DNA of 64,000 nt, taken from positions 64,001 to 128,000 of IMG/VR virus record IMGVR_UViG_3300042555_002918. One strand, 5' to 3'. Below are positions 21,242 to 59,635 of the stretch, in pieces. Position 1 is the first letter of the stretch, and the number at the start of each line of letters is the position of its first letter. Made by a program: the position numbers and the translations under genes. Source of the stretch: a virus. The notes below the pieces were generated by a model, which saw nothing but the letters and a program-made list of their open reading frames with translations, did not search any database and was not told where the DNA came from.

Positions 21242-21478
21242 TTATTCGCTCTTCACGCCCTCTCTCTCAAGAATTGCCAAAGCTTCATCCAAATCCATAA
21301 AAGAGGAGATATCAAATTGATCCCGTTCACCTCGTACTAGCACCTCTCCCTTACACCGAAGCTCAAGGCGGCCCTGGCGGAAATGGATCTCAATTTGTTT
21401 TTTGTTTGAAAGACGTCCAACCCAGGACGATGGACAACTAAAGGAGGTCTGAGTGAGGCTTGCCTTTACAATCTTCAT
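21242..21478 (-). CDS. Hypothetical protein
   Basis: ORF downstream of a GGTAATG-class promoter. Confidence 0.55.
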   Translation of the reverse strand: MKIVKASLTQTSFSCPSSWVGRLSNKKQIEIHFRQGRLELRCKGEVLVRGERDQFDISSFMDLDEALAILEREGVKSE

Positions 21479-21537
21479 ATCACCGCTTCGCTTGATTTTC
21501 CTTGTACAACTATTTAGGACTCAACATCGGCAAACCA

Positions 21538-21572
21538 ACGCTATCAGAACTATCAGTAAGGCGAGCATTACC
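21538..21572 (-). promoter_or_regulatory. GGTAATG-class promoter
   Basis: GGTAATGCTCGCC-N16-TAGCGT. Confidence 0.7.
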
Positions 21573-23549
21573 TTATATTGCTTCGTGACGAGCTCCTGAC
21601 TCAATAATGAGGTACTGTGTTGTTCCAATCTGTAAAATCAGTGGGGTTGGATACTTGGAACCGGGCTTCTTAAACCTCCAGTGGTCTCGCCCTCCATTGC
21701 CGTTACCGGAGTATCGACCAGCTTCGATGAATCGTCCCTTCTTGTGCACGGGCCGCTTTACCTTCCAGGTCGTAATTGACCCGCCCTTGCTCTTATATAC
21801 AAGGGTTGCGTCCTCTAGCTGTCCCGTTGGGAGAGCCTCATACAGCTTTGCCTTCTGCCCTAGGGCGTGAGAAAGAACTACCAGCTTACCGTCGGAGTCT
21901 GCCGTAGGTTTATACAGGTCTTGGGCTCGTTTAGTTCCTTCGACCACGGAATCCCCGTTGAAGATATACCCTTCCTTTGGTGTGAAACTTGTAACTAAGT
22001 CGCTTTTGTTATCGGCGTCATTTTCCTCAAAGTCTACGGAGGGAGCTGGTATAACAGGAATCGGAACCACTACGCCTATACCGGCGGCAATTTCTGTAAG
22101 TTCAGAATAATGGGCGCGGATGAAGTTTCCGGTTGTGAATGGGCTATCAAAAAACGTGAGAGGACCTTCAGTTAATACGACCCTTCCCGCTTTGAGCACG
22201 TTACCGCCTCTAGCCTCAATCTTTGTATCGTTACCCTCAATTTGAACATCACCTTTGGCTTTTACCTTAATCTCTCCCTCAACAGCTACATTAAGGTCCC
22301 CTTTGATAAGGATGCGCACATCGCCATCGACTACGGTATATGCGTTCTTTGCAATTTTCGTGTTGGCATTGCCTCCGACTTTGACGTTTAAATCGCTTCC
22401 TGAGTCCTGATTCATCGCTCCGCCAGACTCCAGAGTAACCTCCTGTATGCCGAGGGCTCGTAAAGTCTCCTTAGCGGTAATGTTGACGCTCTTCTCTGAA
22501 ACGTAACTTGAGTTACCCAGTGCCAAGTCAAACCGGTCATTTACCGCTTTGTCGACCTGCTTTCCATCGGGGTGAATCTCTTTAAATGTTCCGCTTCGAT
22601 GGAAGAAATGAAGTCTCTCTGCCAGTGGGGTATCATCGTATTCGATTACGTGCCCTGACTCTGACTCGTAAACGTGGTTAAATGGATACTGGGCAGCATA
22701 AGGTGTTTCTGGTTCTCCCATCGACTCGCCGTCAGATGCTTTATCGGTCCCTACACCCATGGCGGCATGTGTTGCAGTCGGCGCAGTCAGAGACGCCCCC
22801 TTCTTTCTTGCTACAAGGGTTTGATCCGTATTTTCATTCCTCGCTAATCGGCTTGCTACTGATTCTCTGAGTTGATGCTCAAGGGGATATCTTGAAATTG
22901 GGACCTGGGGGGTGTCCGCTGGACCTGCGCCGTCAAAGAAATCTCCCTCATCATCGCCTGAGCCAGTAGTTCCGTCTTGGTCAGGGTCTATAAGAAGTGA
23001 TGCGTCAGATGAATCGTATTTTCCGTCTCCATTGACATCATATGGGAAAGGATTTACCCCGAACTCTTTAGCAAGTTGTCCGGTCGATGTTGACTGAATT
23101 GGCAACTTGTCGGGATTTTCATATTTACCAGTGGCAGACTCCCCCGACTCTGATGATTCAGGTGTTGGAGGAGGAATCATCTCTGGGGGACGGGCGACTT
23201 TACCGGCAATCAGGTTTTCGTCTGGGGTTGGATCGTTATACCCCTCATTTGGATTTGCTGGCTTCTCGGGAATCCCGGGAATCTTACCCAGGATTATAGG
23301 ATACTGCTTTGCTTCGCCGTCTCTAAAATACCCAGCAACAAAATCTCCCTCTTTGTATCCAACAACGTTCTTTCCATCATCGGCCGGGAGTAACGGCATC
23401 GCCCACGGTAAGCTATCAGTGGGCATCTTTTGCTTGTCGGCATCGTGAAATCCGATTGCTCGAACCCTTACTCTTCCGATGAAAAGTGGGTCGTTTCTGT
23501 CCTCTACGACACCCTCAAAGAGAATCAGTTCTTTTCCGCCGAAAAACAT
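21573..23549 (-). CDS. gp5: Baseplate hub/central spike, without lysozyme domain
   Basis: OB-fold GVVEDRNDPLFIGRVRVR..LPWA; YPFNHVYESESGHVIEYDDTP..ERLH..HRSGT; beta-helix repeats. Confidence 0.88.
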   Translation of the reverse strand: MFFGGKELILFEGVVEDRNDPLFIGRVRVRAIGFHDADKQKMPTDSLPWAMPLLPADDGKNVVGYKEGDFVAGYFRDGEAKQYPIILGKIPGIPEKPANPNEGYNDPTPDENLIAGKVARPPEMIPPPTPESSESGESATGKYENPDKLPIQSTSTGQLAKEFGVNPFPYDVNGDGKYDSSDASLLIDPDQDGTTGSGDDEGDFFDGAGPADTPQVPISRYPLEHQLRESVASRLARNENTDQTLVARKKGASLTAPTATHAAMGVGTDKASDGESMGEPETPYAAQYPFNHVYESESGHVIEYDDTPLAERLHFFHRSGTFKEIHPDGKQVDKAVNDRFDLALGNSSYVSEKSVNITAKETLRALGIQEVTLESGGAMNQDSGSDLNVKVGGNANTKIAKNAYTVVDGDVRILIKGDLNVAVEGEIKVKAKGDVQIEGNDTKIEARGGNVLKAGRVVLTEGPLTFFDSPFTTGNFIRAHYSELTEIAAGIGVVVPIPVIPAPSVDFEENDADNKSDLVTSFTPKEGYIFNGDSVVEGTKRAQDLYKPTADSDGKLVVLSHALGQKAKLYEALPTGQLEDATLVYKSKGGSITTWKVKRPVHKKGRFIEAGRYSGNGNGGRDHWRFKKPGSKYPTPLILQIGTTQYLIIESGARHEAI

Positions 23550-38738: not shown

Positions 38739-38804
38739 ATGCTGAAGACCAACAAAGGGGTTTGGGAATCGGCACTTAGAAAGTTTTTCACACATTTTAA
38801 AAAA

Positions 38805-38839
38805 GGTAATGCTCGGCGCTTAATGCTCTCCCGTAGGCT
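38805..38839 (+). promoter_or_regulatory. GGTAATG-class promoter
   Basis: GGTAATGCTCGGC-N16-TAGGCT. Confidence 0.8.
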
Positions 38840-38878
38840 GGTCAAACTGAAATTAACCGTTTTTTACGGAGTTTGAAC

Positions 38879-39085
38879 ATGGCAACGAAGAAAGCAGCAA
38901 AGGCGACCAAGGCAAAGACAACGACGGCAGGGAAATCTACGGCTGAGATCCTCACCCAGACAAACAGCCGAGTGGCTTGCTTAAGCGCAGCAAAGAAGAA
39001 GGCAGCTAAGAAGAAGGCAGCAAATCGGGTGGTATCGCTTTTGACCCGAGCAAAGGCAGCGCTTCTTCGCCTTGTGGGTCGTTAA
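38879..39085 (+). CDS. Small Lys/Ala-rich basic (histone H1-like) protein
   Basis: KKAAKATKAK, AAKKKAAKKKAA; RBS GGAG. Confidence 0.6.
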   Translation: MATKKAAKATKAKTTTAGKSTAEILTQTNSRVACLSAAKKKAAKKKAANRVVSLLTRAKAALLRLVGR

Positions 39086-39482: not shown

Positions 39483-39533
39483 AAAAAAGCCCCGGTGTCG
39501 CATGGTGAGTGCGGCATCGGGGCTTCTTCTTTT
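39483..39533. terminator. Bidirectional intrinsic terminator bounding the att region
   Basis: A6-GCCCCGGTGTCGCA...TGCGGCATCGGGGC-TTCTTCTTTT. Confidence 0.75.
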
Positions 39534-39681
39534 GGGGGTCGTGAGTGGTTTGGTGGGTAGCGGATCATCTGTCCGCTTTATCTGTTTGCCTTTGCTTTTG
39601 ACTTCTTGTTACTGTTTAAGAGAGCGGACATTTTGGGCTCACTTCGTTCGATGCTTTTGAGTAAAACGCACTCGAACTTCG

Positions 39682-40003
39682 TGGTCATAAAATGGTCCAA
39701 AACATCGAAAAACACGTAGCGAAAAGTGGCTACAAAGAGCAAAAACGAACGCACAAACCGTTAGGAGTTTTGCTTTGAAAAGTGTGGTGTTTTAGGGGAA
39801 TAAATAACCATTTCAGTGAGATAGAAATGGAGCGGGTGAAGAGATTCGAACTCTCGACCTCTTCCTTGGCAAGGAAGACAGTCGAGAGTTAGATTCGAGG
39901 TGAGACTACCTTAACCTGCTGATTTACCTACCCTTATCACCTTCTCATTTTTCAAACATAGGTCAAAAAAGGTCCGTGGTCCAAAATGGTCCAAATTTTG
40001 ACC
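39682..40003. mobile_element. attP: Phage attachment site attP (tRNA-Gly core with integrase arm-type repeats)
   Basis: TGGTC(C/A)-A-rich repeats at 39682, 39693, 39960, 39977 and 39987, inverted copy at 39996-40003; IHF consensus at 39912-39924; adjacent to integrase. Confidence 0.8.
39828..39877 (-). pseudogene. 3' half of tRNA-Gly(GCC), the attP identity segment
   Basis: - strand CTTCC-TTGCCAA-GGAAG-AGGTC-GAGAG-TTCGAAT-CTCTT-CACCCGC-TCCA; D-arm and 5' acceptor strand absent. Confidence 0.9.
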
Positions 40004-40019
40004 CGCAAAAATGCCCTAG

Positions 40020-40054
40020 GGGAATGTTTGAGCGTTCGTCATAGCTCTTAAGTT
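40020..40054 (+). promoter_or_regulatory. Variant GGTAATG-class promoter for integrase
   Basis: GGGAATGTTTGAG-N16-TAAGTT. Confidence 0.5.
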
Positions 40055-40061
40055 AGGAGGC

Positions 40062-41180
40062 ATGATGAAGCAAAAAAACATCGTCGAGCGCACCACTGCT
40101 AATGGCGAAAAGCGGTATCGAGTGAGGGTAAGGCTTAAGGGGGTCTACGTGAGCAAGACATTTCGCTCTAAGGCCCATGCCCAACAATGGCTCCAGAATC
40201 AGTCGAGGACCATCGGAGCATCGGCTGAACTTGGAATCCTGGATGACTCAGACTACAGCACAAAGACCGTCAAGGATGCTGTGGAGTCCTTCCGGACATT
40301 CAAGCTCCCTACCCTGACATCGGGGGAGAATAACCGGAGTCTGCTGGATGAGATTGTCAGGACCCTAGGAACCAAGAAGCTTAACGACGTGGACCACGAC
40401 GACGTGTTCCTGGCGGTAAGGGAATATCGTAGTGGGGGGAAAAGGGGTCGGTCTGAATCGTCGGCCAATAAGTTTATCAACCTCATCTCGTCGGTGTTCA
40501 CCGAGGCAAGGCGAAAGAAGTGGACCAAGAACAAGCCCACCGAGTTTGTTAAGCGATACGATGAAGAGAGGTTTCAGCGAACCAGGTCTCTCAGCAAGGA
40601 GGAGGAGGAAAGGCTTATTAAGGAGGCAGAGAAGAACATTTACCCAAACTCCGTAGTTTCAATCTGGTTGGCCCTCCTCACCGGATACCGGAAGGACTGG
40701 ATCCGCCATATGAAGTGGGACTACATCAACTTTGACAGGAGAATGATCCAGCTACCCTTGGGGAAGATTAACCCTCATGGAAAGACTGGTAAGAATACAG
40801 CTAAGGGTTTACCCATCGTTGAGAAGCTCTATCAAGAGTTGAAAAAGCATAGAGCCCTCTTGCGTGCAGCTGGCGTCAATAGTCCCTACCTGTTTCCTCA
40901 GGAGAGTAACGCTAATAAGGCTTGGGACATCATAGCTGCGTATAAGAGCGCAGTAAAAAGAGCTGGTATTGAGAACTTAACGTTCCACGACCTTCGACAT
41001 AGCGCGGCGACTAACCTGGTAATGAAGGGGATTCATCAGCGGATTATCGGAGAGATGCTTGGGCACAAGGACGCTAGGAGTACTCAGCGATATACCCATG
41101 TGCCAACTGAGCATATGAGAAATGAACTTGAGAAAGCCTTTTCCTATTCAAATGATGGAGGTGAAGATGAGACCGTGTAA
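40062..41180 (+). CDS. int: Tyrosine integrase
   Basis: Catalytic R (TGYRK), HDLRH, LGHKD, RYTH; N-terminal arm-binding-like YRVRVR..SKTF. Confidence 0.93.
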   Translation: MMKQKNIVERTTANGEKRYRVRVRLKGVYVSKTFRSKAHAQQWLQNQSRTIGASAELGILDDSDYSTKTVKDAVESFRTFKLPTLTSGENNRSLLDEIVRTLGTKKLNDVDHDDVFLAVREYRSGGKRGRSESSANKFINLISSVFTEARRKKWTKNKPTEFVKRYDEERFQRTRSLSKEEEERLIKEAEKNIYPNSVVSIWLALLTGYRKDWIRHMKWDYINFDRRMIQLPLGKINPHGKTGKNTAKGLPIVEKLYQELKKHRALLRAAGVNSPYLFPQESNANKAWDIIAAYKSAVKRAGIENLTFHDLRHSAATNLVMKGIHQRIIGEMLGHKDARSTQRYTHVPTEHMRNELEKAFSYSNDGGEDETV

Positions 41181-41391
41181 GTACCCAGACTACGTAAAAG
41201 CCCAAGACCTAGCAGATGAATTTGGAATAGAGCCATTGCTAGCCAAGGCAATGATTTACTTCCGGCAGATCAACGGCCTATGCGATGCGGGAGCTATTAT
41301 GATTTTGCATGGCTCAAGGGTCATGATCCACAAGGAGAAGTTCCAGAACTGGATGGAACGAAAAAAGCTTCCAAAGAGCGTCATCTGGTAA
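41167..41391 (+). CDS. Excisionase/RDF-like winged-helix protein 1
   Basis: YVKAQDLADEF..NGL..GA..GSRVMIHKEKFQNWM; overlaps end of int. Confidence 0.6.
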   Translation: MRPCKYPDYVKAQDLADEFGIEPLLAKAMIYFRQINGLCDAGAIMILHGSRVMIHKEKFQNWMERKKLPKSVIW

Positions 41392-41421
41392 TGTTGGAGC
41401 GATGATCGTAGTTGATAAATT
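41387..41421 (+). promoter_or_regulatory. Variant GGTAATG-class promoter for xis-like gene 2
   Basis: GGTAATGTTGGAG-N16-TAAATT. Confidence 0.6.
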
Positions 41422-41453
41422 GAAACTCGACAGGATGAAACACCTGGAGGGTT

Positions 41454-41675
41454 ATGACAAACGACACCGCTACAATATCCAATCTTCTAACACCAAAGCA
41501 GCTTGTGGAGCGTCATCGGTGGCTGACAATGGGTACTCTCAGGAAATACCTTTTTCACCGAATGTACAACGGTCTGGCTGAACAGAAAGTTGTCATTGCT
41601 CTATCTCAAAAGAAGCTTTTGATAGACGAAGCGCGGTTCATAAATTGGGTCAGATCTCATGGTCCCACCTGCTAA
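41454..41675 (+). CDS. Excisionase/RDF-like winged-helix protein 2
   Basis: LLTPKQL..LTMGTLR..NGL..KKLLIDEARFINWV; RBS GGAGG. Confidence 0.7.
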   Translation: MTNDTATISNLLTPKQLVERHRWLTMGTLRKYLFHRMYNGLAEQKVVIALSQKKLLIDEARFINWVRSHGPTC

Positions 41676-41686
41676 GACATTTAACT

Positions 41687-41710
41687 AGGCCCTCCTCGCG
41701 AGGGCCTTTT
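41687..41710 (+). terminator. Intrinsic terminator
   Basis: AGGCCCTC-CTCGC-GAGGGCCT-TTT. Confidence 0.75.
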
Positions 41711-41739
41711 CATTTCTCCCGTTCTGACATTCTCCAAAA

Positions 41740-41774
41740 GGTAATGCTCGGCGATTAGTCCACTTCCCTACCCT
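41740..41774 (+). promoter_or_regulatory. GGTAATG-class promoter
   Basis: GGTAATGCTCGGC-N16-TACCCT. Confidence 0.8.
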
Positions 41775-41780
41775 GGGAAA

Positions 41781-42374
41781 ATGGAACAGCGCACATTACA
41801 AATTCCTCAGGAGTTCATTTTAGAAGGTGAAGAGTGGAAGCCAATGCCAAAATATCCCGACCTCTTCGGCATTTCCAACCTAGGGAGGTCATGGAGCATT
41901 ACGAAGCAAAAAATCATCAAGCCCTGGAAAGATAAAGACGGGTATCTCCAATATCGCAATTACGTAGCAGGCCTGGACTGTATGATTTCCTTTAGACCTC
42001 ACCGCGAAGTGGCTGCTGCCTTTATACCCAACCCACACAATTACCCTCAGGTTCACCATATTGACGACGACAAGCTTAACAACTCAGCTTCTAACTTGAA
42101 GTATGGCACAGCCAAAATGAACCAACTGGATGCTGAGAGAAATAAGGTAGAGGGCTACGCTCATCGCAGGGCAGTCGTTGGGATTCATATCGAGACCGGA
42201 GAAAAGAAAAGATACCCAAGCGTACGTGACGTTGAGAAGGACGGCTTTAACTTCAGTAACGTCCGCCAGTGCTGTAAGGGCAAACGGCACAAAGCTCATG
42301 GGTACAGGTGGAAATACGCCGACGAGGCGAATGTTTCAAACATGTTCTTGGTAGATAAAATCCCTGCCGAATAG
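41781..42374 (+). CDS. NUMOD4-HNH-NUMOD1 homing endonuclease
   Basis: EEWKPM..ISNLGR, HREVAAAFIPNP..VHHID.DK.NN..NL, CCKGKR..AHGYRW. Confidence 0.88.
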   Translation: MEQRTLQIPQEFILEGEEWKPMPKYPDLFGISNLGRSWSITKQKIIKPWKDKDGYLQYRNYVAGLDCMISFRPHREVAAAFIPNPHNYPQVHHIDDDKLNNSASNLKYGTAKMNQLDAERNKVEGYAHRRAVVGIHIETGEKKRYPSVRDVEKDGFNFSNVRQCCKGKRHKAHGYRWKYADEANVSNMFLVDKIPAE

Positions 42375-42709: not shown

Positions 42710-42973
42710 CTACTTCCCCTTGGTCGCTTTGTCTAACATCCGGGCTAGGTCATATTGGTCGAGTCCTAGCTTTTCAAACCACTCGGTAATGAGAGAGACC
42801 TTTAACTGATAAATGCCGCTGGTATACTGACGGTAGTACTGCCGAAGGATTCCTAGCTCCTTGGCGATTGCATAGTCAGTCATCCCCGTACGATCATTAA
42901 GCAGGTCGAAAAAGAGCACCTGATTGAATGAACCTTTGGGCTTAGTTTGACGTTTGCTCTTTTTCTTAATCAT
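42710..42973 (-). CDS. XRE-like helix-turn-helix protein (candidate repressor)
   Basis: MTDYAIAKELGILRQYYRQYTSG..LKVSLI..LGL. Confidence 0.6.
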   Translation of the reverse strand: MIKKKSKRQTKPKGSFNQVLFFDLLNDRTGMTDYAIAKELGILRQYYRQYTSGIYQLKVSLITEWFEKLGLDQYDLARMLDKATKGK

Positions 42974-43764: not shown

Positions 43765-44412
43765 TCATTTCTGACCAATCGATTTGATGAACTTCTGGTA
43801 AGCGTCAAAGCTAACCCGCTGTATTTGAGCGGCGGGCGCGGCTTCAATAGCTTTTTTGGTTTCTTCGACCACACGTGAGACCCAAGTTCCCTCAGCAGAA
43901 AGCACCCACTCCTTGTTCTCCATGACCGCTTGAACGAAAGCATCAGGCGCAGATGGGTTCATCACAACATCACCCGCCGTCACGAGAACGAAAGGAGTGC
44001 CGACTTCCTCATGTCCTTCAGTTGTTAAAGAGACGGATCCTACGGCCCGGGTAGAAACACCGAACTGAACTCCGCCTTTTAGTAATCCTCGCAAAACATT
44101 TCCCATCGGGGTGTCGAGCACGAGTGCTCTACCCACGTAGTTGTTTCCTTCGCGAGCCAAGGTAACAATTCGATGTGAGATGCGATCAATGTTGAGGTTT
44201 GGATTTGTTGGGTGGTCAGCTTCGCCTACCGCCTTACCCGTGTTCACTTGATTTTGGATATAATCCTCGATGATCGGAGCGATCTTTTGTGATGGGTAGA
44301 ACCGGTTGTTCCGGTTAATGGTATCGAGCTGAATGAAGACTCCCTCAAAGTAGAGTTTGTTATCCTCTTCTTGTCTCTTCAATTCAAAATTGGCTTCTTG
44401 TAGTAGCTTCAT
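43765..44412 (-). CDS. gp21: Prohead core protease
   Basis: MKLLQE, EGVFIQ..NRNNRFYP, GEADHP, TPMG, GVSTRAVGS, NPSAPDAFV. Confidence 0.93.
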   Translation of the reverse strand: MKLLQEANFELKRQEEDNKLYFEGVFIQLDTINRNNRFYPSQKIAPIIEDYIQNQVNTGKAVGEADHPTNPNLNIDRISHRIVTLAREGNNYVGRALVLDTPMGNVLRGLLKGGVQFGVSTRAVGSVSLTTEGHEEVGTPFVLVTAGDVVMNPSAPDAFVQAVMENKEWVLSAEGTWVSRVVEETKKAIEAAPAAQIQRVSFDAYQKFIKSIGQK

Positions 44413-44441
44413 AGCGATATAGAGGTCAGTCTGTTTCCCTC

Positions 44442-44479
44442 TATTTATAGCCCTGGGATTTGGGGTGGTCCGATAAATA
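44442..44479. promoter_or_regulatory. Divergent late promoters (gp21 / kinase-like gene)
   Basis: TATAAATA on - strand (44442-44449) and GATAAATA on + strand (44472-44479). Confidence 0.7.
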
Positions 44480-44484
44480 GCTTG

Positions 44485-45294
44485 ATGGCAAAGCGTCAAT
44501 ACCCCATCGAGATACGGGACGTAGCTCCTGGGCCTGGAGCCGTCAGAATGACCGGAAAAACGGTTATTGGAGGCTTAGACGGTCTGCATACAGGTGGCGC
44601 ATGGCTCTACCAGAACAAGGTCTGGAAGCCCTTAGACGGCAGGCCTTATCAAAATGCTCAGTTTCATATCGAGACGGATGAGGAAGCCTGCCTTAAAGCT
44701 CTTCAAGGAAAACCCCTATTCCCAAAGAACTGGGAAATTGCAGAAGCCAACGGGCGACGATTTACCGTAAGAGACAAGGTGCAGACCTTTCCTGGAGGAG
44801 GATTAACCCTCAACGCTTCTCAAGTGCAGGAAATCGAAAAGGGCATTAGGGAGATGAACAGATCTGGATGGGCAGTAAATGACAACCTTGTCATCGGACG
44901 CGATGGCTCAGGGCGGCTCTTCATCGTTGACCTTTCAAACGCGTCGCACTCGACCCAGACGGGAATCCATAAACCGGACGACGGGTTCTTCTTAGATGAG
45001 CTAATGAAACAGGCTGGCTTTGGTGAGATAGTCAAATTAAAGAAGCTCGCTCAAGAGATGCGAGGTTTAATGATTTTCAATAAAGCTTTTAGTAAGTACT
45101 CAAGCTACCGCTGGATCTACTCATCGAAACAGAAGAGTGAGATTACGGGAACTGTTGATGTCACGGCGATGGCAAGTGAACTTAACGCCGTTGATAGTGG
45201 GGTTGCTCGCCAATTTTCTTGGTATGCAAGCAAGTCCGAGCTTCAGCAATCTGTAGTTCGGTCAAAGGGACTAACGCTGAGAGTAGCGGGATAG
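44485..45294 (+). CDS. Protein kinase-like fold protein
   Basis: Gly-rich loop, VWK, EEACL, GWAVND, FIVDLS. Confidence 0.5.
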   Translation: MAKRQYPIEIRDVAPGPGAVRMTGKTVIGGLDGLHTGGAWLYQNKVWKPLDGRPYQNAQFHIETDEEACLKALQGKPLFPKNWEIAEANGRRFTVRDKVQTFPGGGLTLNASQVQEIEKGIREMNRSGWAVNDNLVIGRDGSGRLFIVDLSNASHSTQTGIHKPDDGFFLDELMKQAGFGEIVKLKKLAQEMRGLMIFNKAFSKYSSYRWIYSSKQKSEITGTVDVTAMASELNAVDSGVARQFSWYASKSELQQSVVRSKGLTLRVAG

Positions 45295-45298
45295 CGAC

Positions 45299-46975
45299 CT
45301 ACTCTCCGCTATCGACTGGAAATGTCTCAGAGCCTGGAACAGGTTCCTGGGGATCAACTGGCTCACTTTGAGGAGCCCCACCGAGAGGTTGTCCTGTCAT
45401 TGGATCTATTTGCATCCCGGTAGCTGGGTCCACAATAGGAGGCGGTATAATCTCACCTCGGGCCATCTCCTCCTGAATCTCAGATTGCATCTTTAGCTGC
45501 TCATCATCGGTCATCTTAAAGATGTGCTGTTTGATCCACTTGTTTGACAAATATTTTCCAACAAACCCCTGAGCCTCGGCCGCGAGAGCCATTCGACTTG
45601 TATAGACCGTTGCCTCGGACATCTCTGAATAGTAGTTGTCAGATGCAAACTTGTACTTCCAGTTACTGAGAAGATATTCCATATCAGCTTCGTCCTGAAC
45701 TATACCTTTCAGTCGAAGTTGAGTGGCTAAAAGAGTGTCGAACAAGCTTGAGAACTGCTTTCTCAACCGATGAATCATCTTTGCAAACTGACGCTCATCG
45801 CGAGACACCATTCCCGTATTTCCAAACAACGCCACTGCATCTTGCTCCAGGCGGGATGGAGGAACATTCAATGCTCGAAGGAGCTGTTTGTTGAAGTAGT
45901 CAATTGTGCTCGTGTCGTCAAAGCCTGCCCCGCCGGGGATAGCATCAACTTGAACGGACTCTCCTGAGCTAGGTACCGGAATGAAGATGTCGTCGATGAT
46001 GGACATTACCTTGCGCTCATCGACCACGTCGCCGGTGATTGCATCGAAGGCTGTCTTTGTGCGGTATTGAGCCACAATTTGATCAAGATAGTGACTGACT
46101 TGCTTTTCCGGCATCTGCCCGGTTGGTATTCTCCACACTCTTCGCTCTGGCGCTCGGGCAACCTTATAGATGAGGGTGGCGTTCTCCATGCTCTTCAACT
46201 GAGACATGGGCCGAATAGCTTTATGTAGGTACGAGAGGATAACTGAGCTGGTAGAATCGAAGATGCCCGAGTGAACAAAGGCAATCGAATCCCTTGTGAG
46301 CTTTACTCCATTTATGATTGGATTCTTCCCAAATGGGACGACCGCCGTGCCGTTGTAATCAATTCCAAACGGAGCATAGACAAAGTACTCATTTACAATG
46401 TCCGTGTACTCAATCTGAGTGGCTGGGTCTATCCGTTTGTCGACCTCAATGAACTTCCTTATTTGACGAGGGTCAATGTAGCGAAGCTCCTTTATACCCA
46501 TGCGAGGGTCTTGATGGGGAAGGATCTGATAGAACAACCTTCCATCAGTGTAATAATTTCGGAAGAGCTGATAAGACTCATTGGTCCAGTTAAGGAGTTT
46601 GAGTACATTTTCAAACTCATCCGTGAGGATTTTCTTAACTTCATCTGGAATCTGCTCGCAATCCGTAAGGTCAAGCTCAACAGCCGAGTGTTCGCCGTCT
46701 TGTACAATACACTCATTGGTAATCTCATTGATTGCCCAGTCCACTAAAGGATGTAACGACAGATCGCGATATCGGGTAATGAGTTGGTACTCTGTCAGCT
46801 GTCCGTCAATCTTGGTCTGAGAGTTCCCGAGGTACCCGAATTGGTTGGGTGCGCCAATTACCACACTCCCATCGTTTGGATTTGGGGGCACAGGAGACGA
46901 CAGCTTTGCCTCCGAATCGCGCCGGAACGCAAAGCCGAACAGCCGAGAGATTAAGAAAGATCGTGTTTGTGCCAT
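45299..46975 (-). CDS. gp20: Portal protein
   Basis: LFGF, YRDLSLHP, DGRLFY, ELRYIDPR, SYLHKAIRP, RAPERRV. Confidence 0.95.
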   Translation of the reverse strand: MAQTRSFLISRLFGFAFRRDSEAKLSSPVPPNPNDGSVVIGAPNQFGYLGNSQTKIDGQLTEYQLITRYRDLSLHPLVDWAINEITNECIVQDGEHSAVELDLTDCEQIPDEVKKILTDEFENVLKLLNWTNESYQLFRNYYTDGRLFYQILPHQDPRMGIKELRYIDPRQIRKFIEVDKRIDPATQIEYTDIVNEYFVYAPFGIDYNGTAVVPFGKNPIINGVKLTRDSIAFVHSGIFDSTSSVILSYLHKAIRPMSQLKSMENATLIYKVARAPERRVWRIPTGQMPEKQVSHYLDQIVAQYRTKTAFDAITGDVVDERKVMSIIDDIFIPVPSSGESVQVDAIPGGAGFDDTSTIDYFNKQLLRALNVPPSRLEQDAVALFGNTGMVSRDERQFAKMIHRLRKQFSSLFDTLLATQLRLKGIVQDEADMEYLLSNWKYKFASDNYYSEMSEATVYTSRMALAAEAQGFVGKYLSNKWIKQHIFKMTDDEQLKMQSEIQEEMARGEIIPPPIVDPATGMQIDPMTGQPLGGAPQSEPVDPQEPVPGSETFPVDSGE

Positions 46976-48306: not shown

Positions 48307-49623
48307 TTAGAGAAGATTCTTGATCTTGAACTTTCTATACCAAACGTTGCTGTTTGCAGTGAACGCGCCAGTGCTGTTTCCTGCAAGGTTTCCGAAAGGC
48401 GACTCAACGCAACCATACCTAGTCTTGAAAGCAAGACTTGGCTGGTAACTCTTCGGATCAGTAGCTTGGAACATCTGAAGCGGAGTATATGGAGCGTAGA
48501 AGAATCCAGCATCCATTGGGCTTGGCCCCTTGTACCCTACTACAGCGAAGTTCACGTTTGCTGGAATATATGGATCAGCGTAAACCTTCCATCGTCCCAT
48601 CAATGTACCAACATAGGTACGTCCGCTCTCCTCAACACCGATGTCAACCTTAAGAGCGTCTGTGCAATCAAGGAGCTTAGCCATCGAAAGAGCGGCAGCA
48701 GTGTTGCTGTCGCAGATAACGATGTTACCAATTCCACGACGAGTCTCGCGAGCAATTGCGTTAGACTCACGAGCAAGTTGGATGATAAGTCCAACGTACT
48801 TCTCAGCATGGAATCGTCCGTCAGCATCTTGATTAAGGTCGAACTCACCTGGAGTTGCGAGGCCCTCATCCTGACATCCTACCTTAGCGATGTGGTAGAT
48901 GGTACGGATGACTTCACGGTTAATCTCACTGAGAAGCTCAGTTGCAACGATCTCAGCAAGCTCTTTCTGAGCATCAAGGCCGTGTACAGCCATGAGGTCT
49001 TGCATAAGCTCATGTGTGTACGATGCACGCAACGCACGAGTCTTAGCCTCAACTGGGATACGGTCGATGCTAAGAGACATCTCAGGCATATCTGGGGACG
49101 ATCCGCCAGTTCCAAGAGCCTCACCAGCAGCGGTCGTAAGACCGGTTCCGCGAGAGAAACCTACATCGAATGGATCAACTGTCGTCGAGTGGGTTCCGGC
49201 TCCTGTGAAGTCGGTGTCTGCCTCATTGTGAAGAGCCTCAGTTCCACCCTGGCTCGTGTACTTCGCCTTAAGAGCAAAGATGAACGAGTTTGGCGCCGAC
49301 ATTGGCTGAACGCCTGCTACGTCAAATGCCATCATGTACGGCAAAGAACGTCGAAGCATGGTCATAAGAGGAACAGTGAATCCCTTAAGATTTGGATTCT
49401 CTGGGAAAGCCCCTGCACTGTTAGCAGCAGCATCCTCGGTAATGAACTTGCTGTTAAAGTCGCGATAAACAGCGTTGGTCTTGATATCCTGTAATTGGTT
49501 CTCCAGGAGGCAAGCGATTACTCTCTCTTTATACTCGTTGAGTTTAGGGAAAGCCTGGTGGCGCAATACGCCCTTCCAGCTCTCTACGAGTACCCTAGAA
49601 GTGTCATTCTTAATCATTTTCAA
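48307..49623 (-). CDS. gp23: Major capsid protein
   Basis: LLENQ, GVQPM, RALRASYT.EL.QDL.AVHGLDA, EINREVI, DAGFFYAPY, FKTRYG. Confidence 0.97.
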   Translation of the reverse strand: MKMIKNDTSRVLVESWKGVLRHQAFPKLNEYKERVIACLLENQLQDIKTNAVYRDFNSKFITEDAAANSAGAFPENPNLKGFTVPLMTMLRRSLPYMMAFDVAGVQPMSAPNSFIFALKAKYTSQGGTEALHNEADTDFTGAGTHSTTVDPFDVGFSRGTGLTTAAGEALGTGGSSPDMPEMSLSIDRIPVEAKTRALRASYTHELMQDLMAVHGLDAQKELAEIVATELLSEINREVIRTIYHIAKVGCQDEGLATPGEFDLNQDADGRFHAEKYVGLIIQLARESNAIARETRRGIGNIVICDSNTAAALSMAKLLDCTDALKVDIGVEESGRTYVGTLMGRWKVYADPYIPANVNFAVVGYKGPSPMDAGFFYAPYTPLQMFQATDPKSYQPSLAFKTRYGCVESPFGNLAGNSTGAFTANSNVWYRKFKIKNLL

Positions 49624-49652: not shown

Positions 49653-50957
49653 CTATTTATTATTCTCGGAGGCCGCCGGGATTAAATTCGCAATTAAATC
49701 TGCTTCAGAACGAACTGTAACAGCGGCGTTGCGAATACCTCCCTGAAGAGCCAGGTTTTCATTGGTAGCTCGAATACCCTCAGTTTTCTTCGCTTTTGGC
49801 ATGAAGGACGCCCTCATAACCTGAACGTTTTCTCTGAACGTATCCAAATCCTCGGCCTTAATCTTGGCGACCACGGCCTTGAAATTCTCAATTTCGGTCA
49901 GTGGGAGCCCCTTTGCGGCTTCTTCGATTACGAGAGCGCGGTCACGAAGAGAAACCTCTCTAACCAACGCTGCGTTCTCGGAAACCATCTTGTTTGACTG
50001 GTCCTCCAACTTTGCGATCTTTTGCTCGTACATCTTTACGAGAGATGCAGTCGCATCTACTGTCTCGATATCGAACGTTTCAACAAGAGTTCGAACACTC
50101 TCGAAAATCTTTTGCGCCACCTTTACCTGGGTAGCAGTGAAAAGCTTTGGCTCATTCTCTTTACGCCATGTCTCCACGACGTACTCAAGATAATGGCTTA
50201 CTTGCTCGTTGAGTTTTGCCTCACGTGCTGATGTGATAGCTTGGAACTTATCGCTGAGTTTTTCCTCTGCAAGCTTAACCGCAGTGGCAACACGGGCTTT
50301 TACTGCGCTCTCAACCGACTCATCAAAGAGTCTCTTAACAACGCACTTTTGCTCATCGGAAAGATCCTCTGAACCAGGAAGCTCCGGCTCTGCCTCAACA
50401 TTCTCATCTTCACCGTCAGCTTTGAGGGCGGCATTTGCTTTTGCAACGATATCCGAAATCTCTTCTTCAGTAAGAGATGCGGTGTCCACATCGTTATAGC
50501 CCGCTTCCTTTTCATCCTCTTCGGCGTCGACCTCGGCTTTATCCTCCTCATCGGAGTCTTCAGCTTCGGGCTCTTCCTCGGATTCGCCCATCAGGCGGAT
50601 GATTTCAGCAATCTCTGGATCGAGGTCGTCCGCCACTTCGTCACCGGAAACCTCAGCATCTGCGGGAAGATCTCCCCTCCCGGATCCTGCTGTCGGAGCA
50701 GATGTGGGGGCTGCTGGATCTGCGATTGGAGCGCCAGAAGCGGCCATAAGGTCAGCCTCTGGAAGGAGTGTTTTGCCCATCGGCTCATCAAGTTCCTCAA
50801 CCTCATCGTCAAGAACAGATTTAACTTCCTCCGGATCGACGGCTCGGTTAGCCTCGGCACCTGGCTGCTTAGCTGGTTCACTGCTTGCGACTGCCGCCGA
50901 TGGGTCAATGTCGGATTCACGAAGCAAATCTAACAGCTCGCTTACCTTTGTACTCAT
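49653..50957 (-). CDS. gp22: Prohead core scaffold protein
   Basis: Acidic N-terminal half, LFDESVE, YLEYVVETW..EN; directly upstream of gp23. Confidence 0.85.
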   Translation of the reverse strand: MSTKVSELLDLLRESDIDPSAAVASSEPAKQPGAEANRAVDPEEVKSVLDDEVEELDEPMGKTLLPEADLMAASGAPIADPAAPTSAPTAGSGRGDLPADAEVSGDEVADDLDPEIAEIIRLMGESEEEPEAEDSDEEDKAEVDAEEDEKEAGYNDVDTASLTEEEISDIVAKANAALKADGEDENVEAEPELPGSEDLSDEQKCVVKRLFDESVESAVKARVATAVKLAEEKLSDKFQAITSAREAKLNEQVSHYLEYVVETWRKENEPKLFTATQVKVAQKIFESVRTLVETFDIETVDATASLVKMYEQKIAKLEDQSNKMVSENAALVREVSLRDRALVIEEAAKGLPLTEIENFKAVVAKIKAEDLDTFRENVQVMRASFMPKAKKTEGIRATNENLALQGGIRNAAVTVRSEADLIANLIPAASENNK

Positions 50958-53216: not shown

Positions 53217-55124
53217 CTAAACCCCGACATCCACAATCTCGCAGGAGCCTCCAACACAGGCAAAGTCTCTATCCCCGCCAGTTGTAGTCTCTGCAGTCTC
53301 GTAGCTACGGAGCCCTGACCAATCAATCTCTGTTGGGACCTTGGCCAGGAAGTCTGCATACTGCTCCTGATTTATTGGCTGATATGGAGCTTGCTCATAC
53401 ACATGGTCATCAAACGGCAAGAAGCTTACTCCTGATATCTCGTCAAAGTTATTCCACACCCATGCCTGAACCTCCGGCCATTCGTACTCTTTCACCTGAA
53501 TAGTGACGCTTGGCTTATGTTCGCACCAATAAATTTGATACGTCTTCCAGATCTCTAATTGCTGAATGGCATTAAGACTATCGGAGACAATAGCATCCTT
53601 TGGGGATTCCATCGGAAATGAGAACACAAATACGCTATCTGGCCTCATCTTATCGTCCTCGACCGGAAATCCAGAATCTTTCATGAACTGAGCCAATGGA
53701 TCCTTCTTGTCGGCTCTGACCGTCCGAATGTAATAGTGTGAGAATCGAGTGTGGATGCCCGAAGACGCATTAACTAATTGAGAGACGGTACCCGACGGCT
53801 TTACGCATGTTACTGCCGTGGCCTGATTGATGCCTAGCTTACTCGACCACTCCTTATTAACTGCTACGGCATGGTCTTTAAGCTCTGCGAGGAGGCTAGG
53901 TAGCTTATCAGCATCCACTTGTCCGGACATCATAAGATTATCCATGATTCCGGTGAGGGACACACCAAGAAGGCGCTCCTCTTCGCAGTTCTGGGTCCAT
54001 ACCTTCCTGAGAAATTTGAAGTCGGTAAGGGTCGCTTGAAGGGTGCCAAGTATCGAGGCAATCCTAACCTTTCTGAGTAAAGACTGTTTAGTGTCATTTG
54101 CCCTTACTACAACCTCAGAGAGGTTACAAAATTGCCCGGGGCGCAATATGATCTCTGAGCAGGGGTTACATCCCCAGTCGTTCCGGGGCTCTCGTCTTCC
54201 ACTTCTGGCTACCTGCTTTGCAGATGCAATCCGATTAAAGATCCCACGCTCGCCCGACTTTGAGTCATAGAGCGCGAGCCACTCCCTCATGAATTGTCCA
54301 ACATCAGGCTTTTCGTTGTATACTGCTGAATTATTGGCAAGGGAGCGGTATCCATGTGTCATCCAGAATTGCCCGCTCTTAGCATGTCTCATCAGATCAT
54401 CCGATGGACTCGAAAGCGATATGAGTGCTGAGCGCCTAACTCCTCCAACAACCACAACATCCCCAATCTTACAGACGATGTCATGGACTTCGAGAGAGTT
54501 CAATTTCCGCCCTGCCGCTCCCTTAAATTTCGCGATTGCAAACTCACAAAGTGACTTGAGAGGCTCTGGTCCCGATGCCCTTCCACCGAATGTCTTGAGG
54601 CGAGCTCCGGCTGGTCGAATCTTGGAGTAGTCAATCTTTGGCTCCAGTCCTAAGTACAATAGTGAGATGAGCTCTTTAAACCCCTTTGCCCACCCAATCT
54701 TCGAATCTGCAAACACGATCGTAGTGTCCGTTGGAAAGATATGTTCAGGAACTACAGGAAGCTTAGATACTGCTCCATGCTCTACGGAAAACCCAACTCC
54801 AGTTCCGCACAGAAGGATGTAAAGGACCTCAGACAATGCGACAGGATCATCGATGGAAACGTACGCACAGTTATAGGCACAGACGTTACACCGCTTTGCT
54901 GCCGGTCCGGCCGTCATAAGCAACCGCATAGATGGCATAACCTCAAGGGTCTTTATGGCATTGGCAATCTCTACAGTTGTCTCATCGTCGCAATTCGGCC
55001 TAACTAGAAAATCAACGTAACGGTCAACCGTTTCTTCCCACGTTTCTCGTCTACCAAGGTCATCTCGAAAGCGAGCATATCTGGAGAGTGCAATGAATGT
55101 CTGATAATTTGTTGGGAGGGCCAT
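53217..55124 (-). CDS. nrdJ: Class II (B12-dependent) ribonucleotide reductase, monomeric type
   Basis: RRETWEETV, MPSMR, GTGVGFS, GGVRRSALI, NPCSEI, CNLSE, TCVKPSGT, C-terminal CxxxxC. Confidence 0.93.
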   Translation of the reverse strand: MALPTNYQTFIALSRYARFRDDLGRRETWEETVDRYVDFLVRPNCDDETTVEIANAIKTLEVMPSMRLLMTAGPAAKRCNVCAYNCAYVSIDDPVALSEVLYILLCGTGVGFSVEHGAVSKLPVVPEHIFPTDTTIVFADSKIGWAKGFKELISLLYLGLEPKIDYSKIRPAGARLKTFGGRASGPEPLKSLCEFAIAKFKGAAGRKLNSLEVHDIVCKIGDVVVVGGVRRSALISLSSPSDDLMRHAKSGQFWMTHGYRSLANNSAVYNEKPDVGQFMREWLALYDSKSGERGIFNRIASAKQVARSGRREPRNDWGCNPCSEIILRPGQFCNLSEVVVRANDTKQSLLRKVRIASILGTLQATLTDFKFLRKVWTQNCEEERLLGVSLTGIMDNLMMSGQVDADKLPSLLAELKDHAVAVNKEWSSKLGINQATAVTCVKPSGTVSQLVNASSGIHTRFSHYYIRTVRADKKDPLAQFMKDSGFPVEDDKMRPDSVFVFSFPMESPKDAIVSDSLNAIQQLEIWKTYQIYWCEHKPSVTIQVKEYEWPEVQAWVWNNFDEISGVSFLPFDDHVYEQAPYQPINQEQYADFLAKVPTEIDWSGLRSYETAETTTGGDRDFACVGGSCEIVDVGV

Positions 55125-56471: not shown

Positions 56472-57872
56472 CTAAAAATCAAAATCAGAAAATGTTTTAG
56501 GAGTCTTTTCCCCTCGCATACCCTGTCCAAATCGTGACTTATCAAAGGTTGATGCATCTTCATTGACCTTTCTAGGCGACTCCAAATCGTTTGCCTCGGA
56601 TTGAACCACGTCGTATACGCGCATTTTCTGTTTATCAATTCCGACTATGAACTTATTGTAGAAGTTAATGTCCCCATATCGACTCTTAAGCTGCTTCACA
56701 CGCACATGTTGAGCACGTTGGAGGTTTTCGTCTGCACTGAGCCCCAGGAAAATGTCTGCTGTAAATGGCAATCCCATGGACTCTGAGGTATTTTCAAGTC
56801 CTATATCATCACCCTTGTACCCTTCTCGATTCACCTGCGTACCGGTCCACACGCACGCGTTATACTCAACAGCTAATCCTCTACATTCTTCAGCAACAGC
56901 CTTTACGACCTCGTAACTTTTTCCCTGGCGCACCCGGGATGAGTTCATTAGGTTAAGATAGTCGATACAGATGATGTCAGGCTTGAAATTGTCCTTAAGA
57001 GCCAGGTCTTCAATAATCCGACGAAAGTGGTTGACGGAGACTGTAGCTGGAGGGAACTCGTGAATTTTCAGCCGTCCCTTTATCTTGTCTTGGAGAAAGC
57101 GAATCTTTGCAAAGTACATGCTCTCATCAAGATTAACGAAGTTCTGAATTGGAATATCCAAAAGGTTTGAGTCAATTCTCTGTCGAATCTTGTGTTCGGA
57201 AAGCTCAAGAGTAAGGTAGAGCACATTATACCCATACTGAAGGTACTTCGCGGCAAAGTGACACATGAAAAGGCTCTTTCCGACACCAGTACCCGCAAGC
57301 ATCACATTAAGGGTTTTTCGCTCTACTCCCCCCGATGTGATCTTATTGAACATCTCCAAATCAAAGGGGAGCTTATCCACTTTTTCTTTGTACCAGCTGA
57401 ACTGCTTCTGCGCGTCTCTAAAAAAGTCGTGAGAGCTGGACGGCTCAAATGAAATAGCTAGCGAATCCTGTATCAGCCGTGGAATGTCATACATGGAGAC
57501 CTTGGCGTCCCCTTCAAGAACATCCAATGCCTTGGACACTGAAATTTCGAAATCTGAGGTACGACAGAACTCCTCGGTTTGATTGATAAGCCACTCACTC
57601 TCAATCTCCATCTCCCGGAGAGATGCCATGTACTCATTAAGCTCATCTATATTCTCCTGAGATGGAAGGTTCTTGGAAACGCTAATGACAAGCGCAGCCT
57701 CAGACGGTAGAGCTTTGTATTCGGAGAAGAATCTCAAAGCCTCTTTTACAAGCTCCTTTTCCAAAAGGCTCTTGAAGTACTCCGGCTTTAGGTACGGAAC
57801 AACCTTCACTACAAAGGCCTCATCCGTGATAAAGCCTTTTATTATTGCCTTTTGGATCGTCGGGTAAGTCAT
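56472..57872 (-). CDS. gp41: Replicative DNA helicase
   Basis: LAGTGVGKSLFMCH, TLELSE, IDYLN, TQVNREG, TSES.GLP.TAD, KQLKSRY. Confidence 0.95.
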   Translation of the reverse strand: MTYPTIQKAIIKGFITDEAFVVKVVPYLKPEYFKSLLEKELVKEALRFFSEYKALPSEAALVISVSKNLPSQENIDELNEYMASLREMEIESEWLINQTEEFCRTSDFEISVSKALDVLEGDAKVSMYDIPRLIQDSLAISFEPSSSHDFFRDAQKQFSWYKEKVDKLPFDLEMFNKITSGGVERKTLNVMLAGTGVGKSLFMCHFAAKYLQYGYNVLYLTLELSEHKIRQRIDSNLLDIPIQNFVNLDESMYFAKIRFLQDKIKGRLKIHEFPPATVSVNHFRRIIEDLALKDNFKPDIICIDYLNLMNSSRVRQGKSYEVVKAVAEECRGLAVEYNACVWTGTQVNREGYKGDDIGLENTSESMGLPFTADIFLGLSADENLQRAQHVRVKQLKSRYGDINFYNKFIVGIDKQKMRVYDVVQSEANDLESPRKVNEDASTFDKSRFGQGMRGEKTPKTFSDFDF

Positions 57873-59218: not shown

Positions 59219-59635
59219 TTAGTTTTTTCTTTCCTTCCAAAATCTCTGAAGGTGCATGAACACCCATTGGTCGAAGTGACTCATTTCTCCGCTCACTTGA
59301 AGCTCAATATAATTACTTCCAACCTCAACGATGGGCTTGCCTTCAATCATGAACTTTATTGGGCTCTTTCCTCTTTCAAACTGCGCACCATGAACAAACG
59401 ATGAGATTGATTCATAAATCATCTCGGCAAACTCTTTGCTGGTTTTCTCAGGAAACCGGTCCCTTTCAGTGTGTAAACCGGTGGCAGTCACTGTGGCTAT
59501 CTTACCGTGAGTGCCATGCTCAAAATTGATTGTATGATCAACAACCGACTTCATATCAGACGTGGAATCCAACGATTTATCTTGGCTGTTTACTGGTGGG
59601 ATGTAGCTGTGAAACATGCGTTCCTTAGTCGTCAA
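59219..59635 (-). CDS. Hypothetical protein
   Basis: Coupled to the gp43 stop. Confidence 0.5.
   Translation of the reverse strand: MTTKERMFHSYIPPVNSQDKSLDSTSDMKSVVDHTINFEHGTHGKIATVTATGLHTERDRFPEKTSKEFAEMIYESISSFVHGAQFERGKSPIKFMIEGKPIVEVGSNYIELQVSGEMSHFDQWVFMHLQRFWKERKN

Follow-up and report, generated by a model that had tools for sequence, protein, structure and literature searches.

Introduction

Tyrosine integrases encoded beside an exact match to the 3' end of a host tRNA gene are known from phages that otherwise serve as models of virulence, namely the T7-like cyanophages P-SSP7, S-TIP37 and Syn5 and the HTVC019P-type pelagiphages, podoviruses of 40-50 kb. In T7-like cyanophages, int and attP are needed for integration, and no stable lysogens are formed (Shitrit et al., PMC8776855); for the pelagiphages, a preprint gives a precedent for an integrase combined with a host-tRNA match (bioRxiv 10.1101/410191). 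Here we describe a putative integration cassette in a phage of a different kind, a 145-kb T4-type myovirus with a probable host in another phylum. The cassette lies in a stretch of 64,000 nucleotides from the IMG/VR record IMGVR_UViG_3300042555_002918 (bases 64001-128000 of one 145,388-bp contig), which we call the window, and consists of a tyrosine integrase gene (int), two candidate excision genes (xis1 and xis2) and a predicted phage attachment site (attP). T4-like phages are textbook virulent phages, and ecological models, lifestyle predictors and the safety rules of phage therapy all take them to be lytic. Compared with the podoviruses, the locus also differs in its two candidate excision genes, its clear two-sided arm repeats and the several exchanged or retargeted alleles found inside a single clade. 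Searches of the literature for the phrases 'temperate T4-like' and 'T4-like prophage' found none, and wider searches brought up no precedents other than the T7-like and pelagiphage ones, which is not proof that no other exists. Cassettes with a tRNA-targeting integrase are ordinary, and a precedent in podoviruses of lytic type exists; it is the T4-type carrier that is unexpected.

Two further described systems come close to this locus. With lambda-type tRNA-targeting systems it shares a core reaching from the anticodon region to the 3' end of the tRNA, two-sided arm repeats, an adjacent int gene, small genes for probable winged-helix proteins after int and intact catalytic residues; as the core has this extent, the tRNA gene would be rebuilt. 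It differs from them in that the integrase has no close sequence relative in the phage collection, no Pfam arm-binding domain reaches the threshold, and int would come to lie distal to the rebuilt tRNA. Integrases that target tRNA genes reportedly fall into sublocation classes, one of them at the anticodon loop, a scheme ascribed to Williams in 2002. In T4-type phages, genes are shuffled by PeSL promoter cassettes (Arbiol et al. 2010, PMC2839356), and no integrase or excisionase was identified in RB49 or phi1 (PMC2839356). The likeness to PeSL lies in repeated promoter elements around a variable block of a plastic region, the block being replaced between close relatives; the differences are that the shuffled cargo is here the integration module, and that recombination at the repeats is what we infer.

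Results

A T4-type phage with a probable integration cassette

We read the segment at 39.54-41.72 kb as a functional cassette for site-specific integration, complete in itself and belonging to this freshwater T4-like clade, and the phage carrying it as integration-competent; from the sequence comparisons we put the probability of this reading at roughly 0.7. Competence is argued from a core that is identical to the host gene while its flanks drift, from arm repeats that co-vary with the integrase, from the replacement of one tRNA piece by another between relatives, and from purifying selection on the genes. The comparative pattern appears to fit a working attP and integrase, and not a relic, a chimera or a passenger.

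The phage is a T4-type (T4 superfamily) myovirus. Core genes of T4 lie on both sides of the cassette, as the first-pass annotation of the window had reported. They are gp5, gp6 and a baseplate wedge gene to the left and gp21, gp20, gp23 and gp43 to the right (Table 1), with rnh placed on the left through its homologue in a related contig, L028. The sheath gene is found elsewhere in the genome, which otherwise carries the full T4-type set of replication and virion genes. Since the portal is only 37-39% identical to its best matches in the phage collection, which are portals of T4-like cyanophages, the lineage is a distant T4-like one. In its record the genome is listed as viral, with direct terminal repeats and a CheckV completeness of 100%; the GC content is even across the genome (0.46-0.50). 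The first 127 bases of the contig recur exactly at its end, a sign of circular assembly; as a single contig with this end overlap and a single core, the genome is the free (attP) form of the phage. Both contig ends (G000:C1:1-3300 and 142700-145388) lie inside a long, diverged tandem-repeat array of one large gene, with units 73-90% identical, and because the overlap sits within this array the precise point of circularisation is less secure than it normally would be.

The predicted attachment site

The core is the 3' part of a tRNA-Gly(GCC) gene, 184 nt from the int start codon, in agreement with the tRNA 3' half ending in CCA that had been noticed close to int before. ARAGORN found no whole tRNA in the window or in the 145-kb genome. 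Across that genome there is no second copy of any core piece of at least 14 nt; the single copy first noted in the window is thus single in the whole genome, and the second copy that could have marked out a small inserted element is absent.

Five TGGTCCAAA-like arm-type sites surround the core in direct orientation (at 39682, 39693, 39960, 39977 and 39987), two on its CCA side and three on its int side, and an exact 13-mer is present on both sides (39689-39701 and 39983-39995). The positions of the P' arm carry co-varying repeats in three relatives (L028, L031 and L049). A lambda-type attP geometry, with the 3' part of a host tRNA as core and arm sites on both sides, is therefore well supported by the sequence, and the relatives strengthen the earlier description of arm repeats flanking the core. 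The 23-nt block that adjoins the CCA end would become the trailer of the rebuilt tRNA after integration. Terminator-like hairpins enclose the whole integration unit, the left one terminating the upstream genes of the + strand.

The tRNA fragment (39828-39878) also matches tRNA-Gly genes of Stenotrophomonas phage DLP_6 (98% identity) and phage DSS3_MAL1 (94%), so that nearly identical 3' halves of tRNA-Gly travel in other large phages as well. A small basic protein encoded just left of attP (Table 1) might be an architectural DNA-binding protein; a similar one is found at the equivalent place in L049.

The integrase and the two small downstream genes

The integrase had been described as intact, and its matches to PF00589 (95.8 bits against a cut-off of 27.1) and phrog_1 agree with this. 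The catalytic Arg, Lys, H-x-x-R, His and Tyr align with those of archaeal XerA (4a8e) and are intact in all five int alleles. An N-terminal match to PF24624 (Int_N) reaches 24.7 bits, below the cut-off of 27, and residues 1-65 are conserved in proportion to the similarity of the arm sites. Integrases of the phage collection are at most 31% identical and belong to temperate phages of 32-61 kb (best 30 of 224 records; collection of 50,697 records), and no relatives of the integrase were found among viral contigs. Upstream of int, inspection of the sequences shows a GGGGAATGT box that four int alleles share (those of the window, L028, L030 and L031) amid diverging bases; it is a putative promoter or operator element.

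The products of xis1 and xis2 are paralogous (hhalign 94%), and the most distant relative, L049, retains only Xis2 of the pair. Neither gave a significant match in Pfam or PHROGs (HTH_17, E=0.21), and no homologues of Xis2 were found outside this clade. Structure models (pLDDT 73 and 80) had no Foldseek match at E<=0.001; the top rows of VIA-align (Z 3.2-4.6) are MerR-like winged helices, among them six excisionases. Xis1 and Xis2 are most likely excision or recombination directionality factors, and we treat them as candidates.

Relatives of the cassette and its exchange between phages

Homologues of int drop sharply in identity (99, 88, 68, 59 and 58%, then 31%). All those of at least 58% with enough flanking sequence are on T4-like contigs, in which the cassette lies between the rnh-side genes and gp21/gp20/gp23; L054, with 59% identity, is a 2.3-kb contig without backbone genes. 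Six independent relatives show the cassette at this locus, in separate assemblies (ENA, JGI, Logan and IMG/VR) that stem from at least six samples, and the arrangement is consequently not a chimera. The first-pass annotation had considered the module native to the phage, and the position of the cassette at one locus in the relatives' independent assemblies gives good support, on the sequence level, to a cassette native to the phage lineage.

The tRNA piece and the arm repeats differ between alleles. In L028 and L029 (int 88%), the tRNA-Gly(GCC) core and the arm repeats are as in the window. A tRNA-Gly(GCC) core is combined with TTGTCCAA repeats in L030 (int 68%), the 3' part of tRNA-Gly(CCC) with TTCGTCCAAA repeats in L054 (int 59%), and the 3' part of tRNA-Val(GAC) with GCGTCCAAA repeats in L031 and L032 (int 58%). 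In another relative, from IMG/VR (L049 and L050; portal 79%), an int of 32% identity lies at the equivalent spot without a tRNA-like core, and paired TGTGCCA repeats are found on both sides, about 270 nt apart. The cores across alleles are hence tRNA-Gly(GCC) three times, tRNA-Gly(CCC), tRNA-Val(GAC) and one non-tRNA sequence, in a constant geometry; the arm repeats change together with the int allele, and the tRNA piece of every relative runs from the anticodon stem or loop to CCA. A search of the 124 genomes in the host phylum identified below, with up to one mismatch allowed, did not find the tRNA-Val(GAC) core of L031.

The Logan contigs L030 and L054 start exactly 30 nt into the core, which is the first base of the anticodon loop. 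In the k=31 Logan assembly such starts are expected where a sequence also has a second context in the sample, the host gene, that is identical to it only from the loop onwards. The two start points would thus fit a host tRNA in the same sample with identity beginning at the anticodon loop.

Between the window and L028, int, xis1 and xis2 have ratios of nonsynonymous to synonymous substitution (dN/dS) of 0.049, 0.057 and 0.053, respectively, with proportions of synonymous differences (pS) of 0.59-0.68, near saturation, and of nonsynonymous differences (pN) of 0.06-0.09. All three genes are under strong purifying selection. In L030 the neighbouring genes are 88-96% identical to those of the window (portal 95%), but int, xis1 and xis2 are only 58-75% identical (int 68%); in L028 the neighbouring genes are 44-79% identical, but int and xis 84-88%. 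Divergence of the cassette is uncoupled from that of the backbone, which indicates that the cassette was exchanged between phages. From these comparisons, it appears to be swapped among related phages and retargeted to other tRNAs.

In the next clade (capsid 55% identical) no integrase was found within 10 kb of gp23. A contig of this sister clade encodes a DEAD/ResIII helicase with Hint and LAGLIDADG domains, i.e., an intein (L051:14941-17367).

Promoter-like elements around the cassette

A 13-nt box, GGTAATGCTCGGC, has 13 matches in the window against 0.8 expected, upstream of genes (sites include 37351, 38153, 38805, 41740, 51855, 55544 and 62241), and probably represents a phage-specific promoter class. 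Variants of this promoter had been claimed at int and xis2; only 8-9 of the 13 box positions match upstream of these genes, so that the resemblance is weaker than claimed. A pair of 65-nt promoter-like elements brackets the cassette plus two small genes and, by analogy, is a possible substrate for cassette exchange. The two copies (38787 and 41722) were also considered as att sites, and this was rejected, as they are copies of a genome-wide promoter-like element. Directly after the cassette lies a gene for a free-standing HNH homing endonuclease with its own promoter-like box; the window, L030 and L031 have this gene, and L028, L029 and L049 lack it.

The probable host tRNA gene

Exact matches to the 46-nt and 50-nt core strings were found in 27 of 185,579 species genomes, with one copy in each. 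All 27 belong to one phylum (124 genomes) and are freshwater metagenome-assembled genomes (MAGs), most of them named Bdellovibrionota. The core is 100% identical to the tRNA-Gly genes of these genomes over 50-53 nt; the match ends at the anticodon stem on one side and, in all hosts but one, no more than 3 bases past CCA on the other. By sequence, host tRNA-Gly is a well-supported integration target, and Bdellovibrionota are the probable host group. To our knowledge, few phages have been described for these bacteria.

Downstream of the tRNA, 26 of the 27 host loci have unrelated sequence, mostly a similar trailer containing a hairpin. The exception is L008, from a Lake Mendota Bdellovibrionota MAG, in which an intact tRNA-Gly is followed by 22 of the 23 bases that adjoin CCA in the phage. 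Two TTTGGACGA repeats lie 128-148 nt downstream of CCA, the distance of the arm sites in the phage, and there is weak colinear similarity to the P' arm of L031. The genes upstream of the tRNA are syntenic with those of other hosts, and synteny breaks exactly after the tRNA. The downstream block (L008:1-5293, G001:C294) extends over at least 5.3 kb to the contig end, short of the element's far end and integrase, has a GC content of 0.49 compared to 0.55 upstream, and encodes an SDR, a BBE-type (FAD) oxidase, an SHMT-like protein and a P450. Small open reading frames beside the junction had no Pfam or PHROG match and no similarity to phages. On its sequence, L008 is best read as an attL-type junction, formed by an element whose att site is related to that of the phage. 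Because its cargo is not T4-like, the junction speaks for the use of this att family at tRNA-Gly in these bacteria and not for integration of the present phage.

Searches for integrated copies and for lysogenic control

Several results weigh against our reading of the cassette. No integrated T4-like prophage was found in any of the following searches. In the 124 host-phylum genomes there was no portal of this lineage (one weak match, 31%, E=1.6e-20), and integrase homologues were at most 34% identical, none of them adjoining the tRNA-Gly core. All 27 core-bearing host genomes carry one copy of the core, none two, and of the contigs with this clade's capsid gene none exceeds the phage in length (145 kb). 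The attL pattern (host 5' half, core and P' arm) and the P' junction alone were absent from metagenome contigs, and the P' pattern from viral contigs. Of the checks that the first-pass annotation had proposed, those for attL or attR junctions, made in searchable metagenome contigs, and for gp23-bearing prophages were thus negative, the sole attL-like junction being that of L008, whose inserted block lacks T4-like genes. Large prophages are rarely kept in MAGs, and their absence is therefore weak evidence.

Neither an S24 (Peptidase_S24) nor a CI-type repressor was found in the genome, and no conserved repressor was identified. A gene for an HTH_3 (Cro/CI-type) protein, the sole minus-strand gene in a block of + strand genes (Table 1), is a weak candidate for a regulator; it is present only in the window and L030 (88%) and is missing from L028 and L049. 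The other helix-turn-helix protein is of the HTH_31-DUF5753 type. Moreover, the Xis label is drawn from gene position, protein size and a weak similarity in fold (Z at most 4.6, with no significant Foldseek match), so that of the two Xis-like genes proposed earlier the paralogous pair after int stands and the assignment by fold is weak. Finally, the int side of the core would end distal to the rebuilt tRNA, a layout that is less common.

Other features of the locus and of the genome

The coordinates of the cassette and of the T4-type genes are given in Table 1. Outside the window, a second, short tyrosine recombinase (G000:C1:24109-24681; 190 aa, PF00589 E=2.5e-22), which consists of the catalytic domain alone and has the Arg, HxxR, His and Tyr, adjoins a probable large terminase gene (21385-22998) and could be a resolvase or invertase. 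A gene pair encoding the HTH_31-DUF5753 protein (276 aa) and a DUF6879 protein (223 aa) adjoins a formyltransferase-like gene (G000:C1:34142-35654) and is possibly a toxin-antitoxin or defence-related module. Such pairs are better known from actinobacterial genomes.

Table 1. Features of the integration cassette and its surroundings (positions in the window).
Feature	Position	Strand	Remarks
gp6	16288-18090		left of cassette
gp5	21573-23549		left of cassette
65-nt promoter-like element	38787..38851	+	contains GGTAATGCTCGGC; left of cassette
Small basic protein	38873-39085		Lys/Ala-rich, AKKKA-type repeats
Strong terminator-like hairpin	39487..39535	+	17-bp stem and T run; left cassette edge
P' arm (predicted)	39682..39701	+	two repeats (TGGTCATAA, TGGTCCAAA); 127-146 nt from CCA end of core
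Block adjoining CCA end	39805..39827	minus	23 nt; conserved in L028; 22/23 match to host junction L008
attP core (predicted)	39828-39877	minus	50 nt; 3' part of tRNA-Gly(GCC), anticodon stem 5' strand to CCA
P arm (predicted)	39960..39995	+	three repeats (AGGTCAAAA, TGGTCCAAA, TGGTCCAAA)
GGGGAATGT box	40019..40027	+	about 35 nt before int ATG
Tyrosine integrase (int)	40062-41180	+	372 aa; PF00589 E=3e-27; phrog_1 E=1.5e-53
Xis1 candidate	41167-41391	+	74-aa probable winged-helix protein; overlaps int stop codon
Xis2 candidate	41454-41675	+	73-aa paralogue of Xis1
Terminator-like hairpin	41687..41715	+	with T run; right cassette edge
Second 65-nt promoter-like copy	41722..41786	+	74% identical to 38787..38851; upstream of HNH gene
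HNH homing endonuclease	41781-42374		NUMOD4, HNH_3, I-HmuI-like
HTH_3 protein	42710-42973	minus	87 aa
Prohead protease gp21	43765-44499		right of cassette
Portal gp20	45299-46975		right of cassette
Capsid gp23	48307-49623		PF07068; right of cassette
Scaffold	49653-50957		right of cassette
RNR	53217-55124		right of cassette
gp41 helicase	56472-57872		right of cassette
gp43 family-B polymerase	59625-62192		right of cassette

Discussion

In the mechanism that we propose, the N-terminal domain of the integrase would bind the arm repeats and its central and catalytic domains the core, and the enzyme would pair attP with tRNA-Gly(GCC), a single-copy gene in a Bdellovibrionota host. Strands may be exchanged where the anticodon loop begins or just 3' of that point. 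The 5' half of the host tRNA-Gly (GCGGGTGTAGCTCAGTTGGCTAGAGCG...) would then join the sequence left of 39828, the phage-borne 3' part rebuilding the tRNA at this junction, and int would end at the far junction beside the displaced tRNA fragment.

Whether integration leads to true lysogeny is a separate matter, and here we are doubtful. As T7-like cyanophages integrate without lysogeny, integration competence does not settle stable lysogeny. The tRNA-Gly target of the first-pass annotation is supported, and its further step, that the phage lysogenises there, met with neither an integrated copy nor a conserved repressor. A truly temperate clade, with stable 145-kb prophages in single-copy tRNA genes of Bdellovibrionota, two directionality factors and swapping of cassettes, is accordingly a tentative proposal, on which the odds are against us. 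About equally tentative is the alternative that the cassette works and the phage is lytic in practice, integration being rare and transient and no prophage being maintained; it departs from our reading in lifestyle only. The cyanophages, in which int and attP are required for integration and no stable lysogens arise (PMC8776855), are its model, and it agrees with the lack of a conserved repressor, with the lack of an integrated copy in the 124 host-phylum genomes and in long contigs, and with a genome that is otherwise fully equipped for T4-type replication and virion production. Yet two candidate excision factors conserved under purifying selection matter only if the integrated state persists, and they argue that it lasts. 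Repeated retargeting and allele exchange likewise suggest strong selection on the integration site, and the missing prophages count for little, since MAGs usually miss large ones.

It is improbable that the int-att unit is a selfish cassette derived from genomic islands of the host, which spreads by homologous recombination at promoter repeats without the whole phage ever integrating. Such a cassette would explain the uncoupling of its divergence from that of the backbone and the 65-nt promoter-like repeats that bracket it in the manner of PeSL (PMC2839356), the adjoining homing HNH gene, and a related P' arm at the edge of a non-T4 element in L008. However, when attP sits on a circular or concatemeric genome, its recombination necessarily inserts the entire molecule, and there are no direct core repeats that would mark off a smaller unit. 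Moreover, one locus is kept across phages with portals down to 79% identity, at a dN/dS of 0.05, which is hard to reconcile with a cassette of no benefit to the phage.

Very little speaks for the tRNA piece being a decaying remnant of a phage-borne tRNA-Gly or of an old capture from the host, next to an integrase no longer used. T4-like phages do carry tRNA-Gly, and the fragment resembles the genes of DLP_6 (98%) and DSS3_MAL1 (94%); but its match to the host gene is perfect (100%) although the flanks vary from relative to relative, these relatives hold the 3' parts of other tRNAs at the equivalent spot, cut in the same way from anticodon stem or loop to CCA, and strong purifying selection acts on int and both xis genes, so that this explanation is largely refuted. 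Least probable of all is an assembly chimera or a small element inserted in the phage, as suggested solely by the unusual combination of features, given that the arrangement recurs in assemblies made from different samples (ENA, JGI, Logan and IMG/VR), that the genome has a single copy of the core and that composition is uniform (GC 0.47-0.50).

The presence of a conserved, selected and retargeted cassette in a T4-like lineage suggests that the divide between lytic and temperate phages is not tied to the type of virion or of replication. The set of alleles, with three tRNA targets, five types of arm site and nearly identical backbones, forms a natural series for the evolution of integrase specificity, and a probable host group, the Bdellovibrionota, can be named. 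If the clade is indeed temperate, the T4 programme of replication and takeover would be open to silencing by an as yet unrecognised repressor. The phage thus offers a system for asking how a T4-style takeover could be silenced or, if silencing is impossible, why such a phage integrates.

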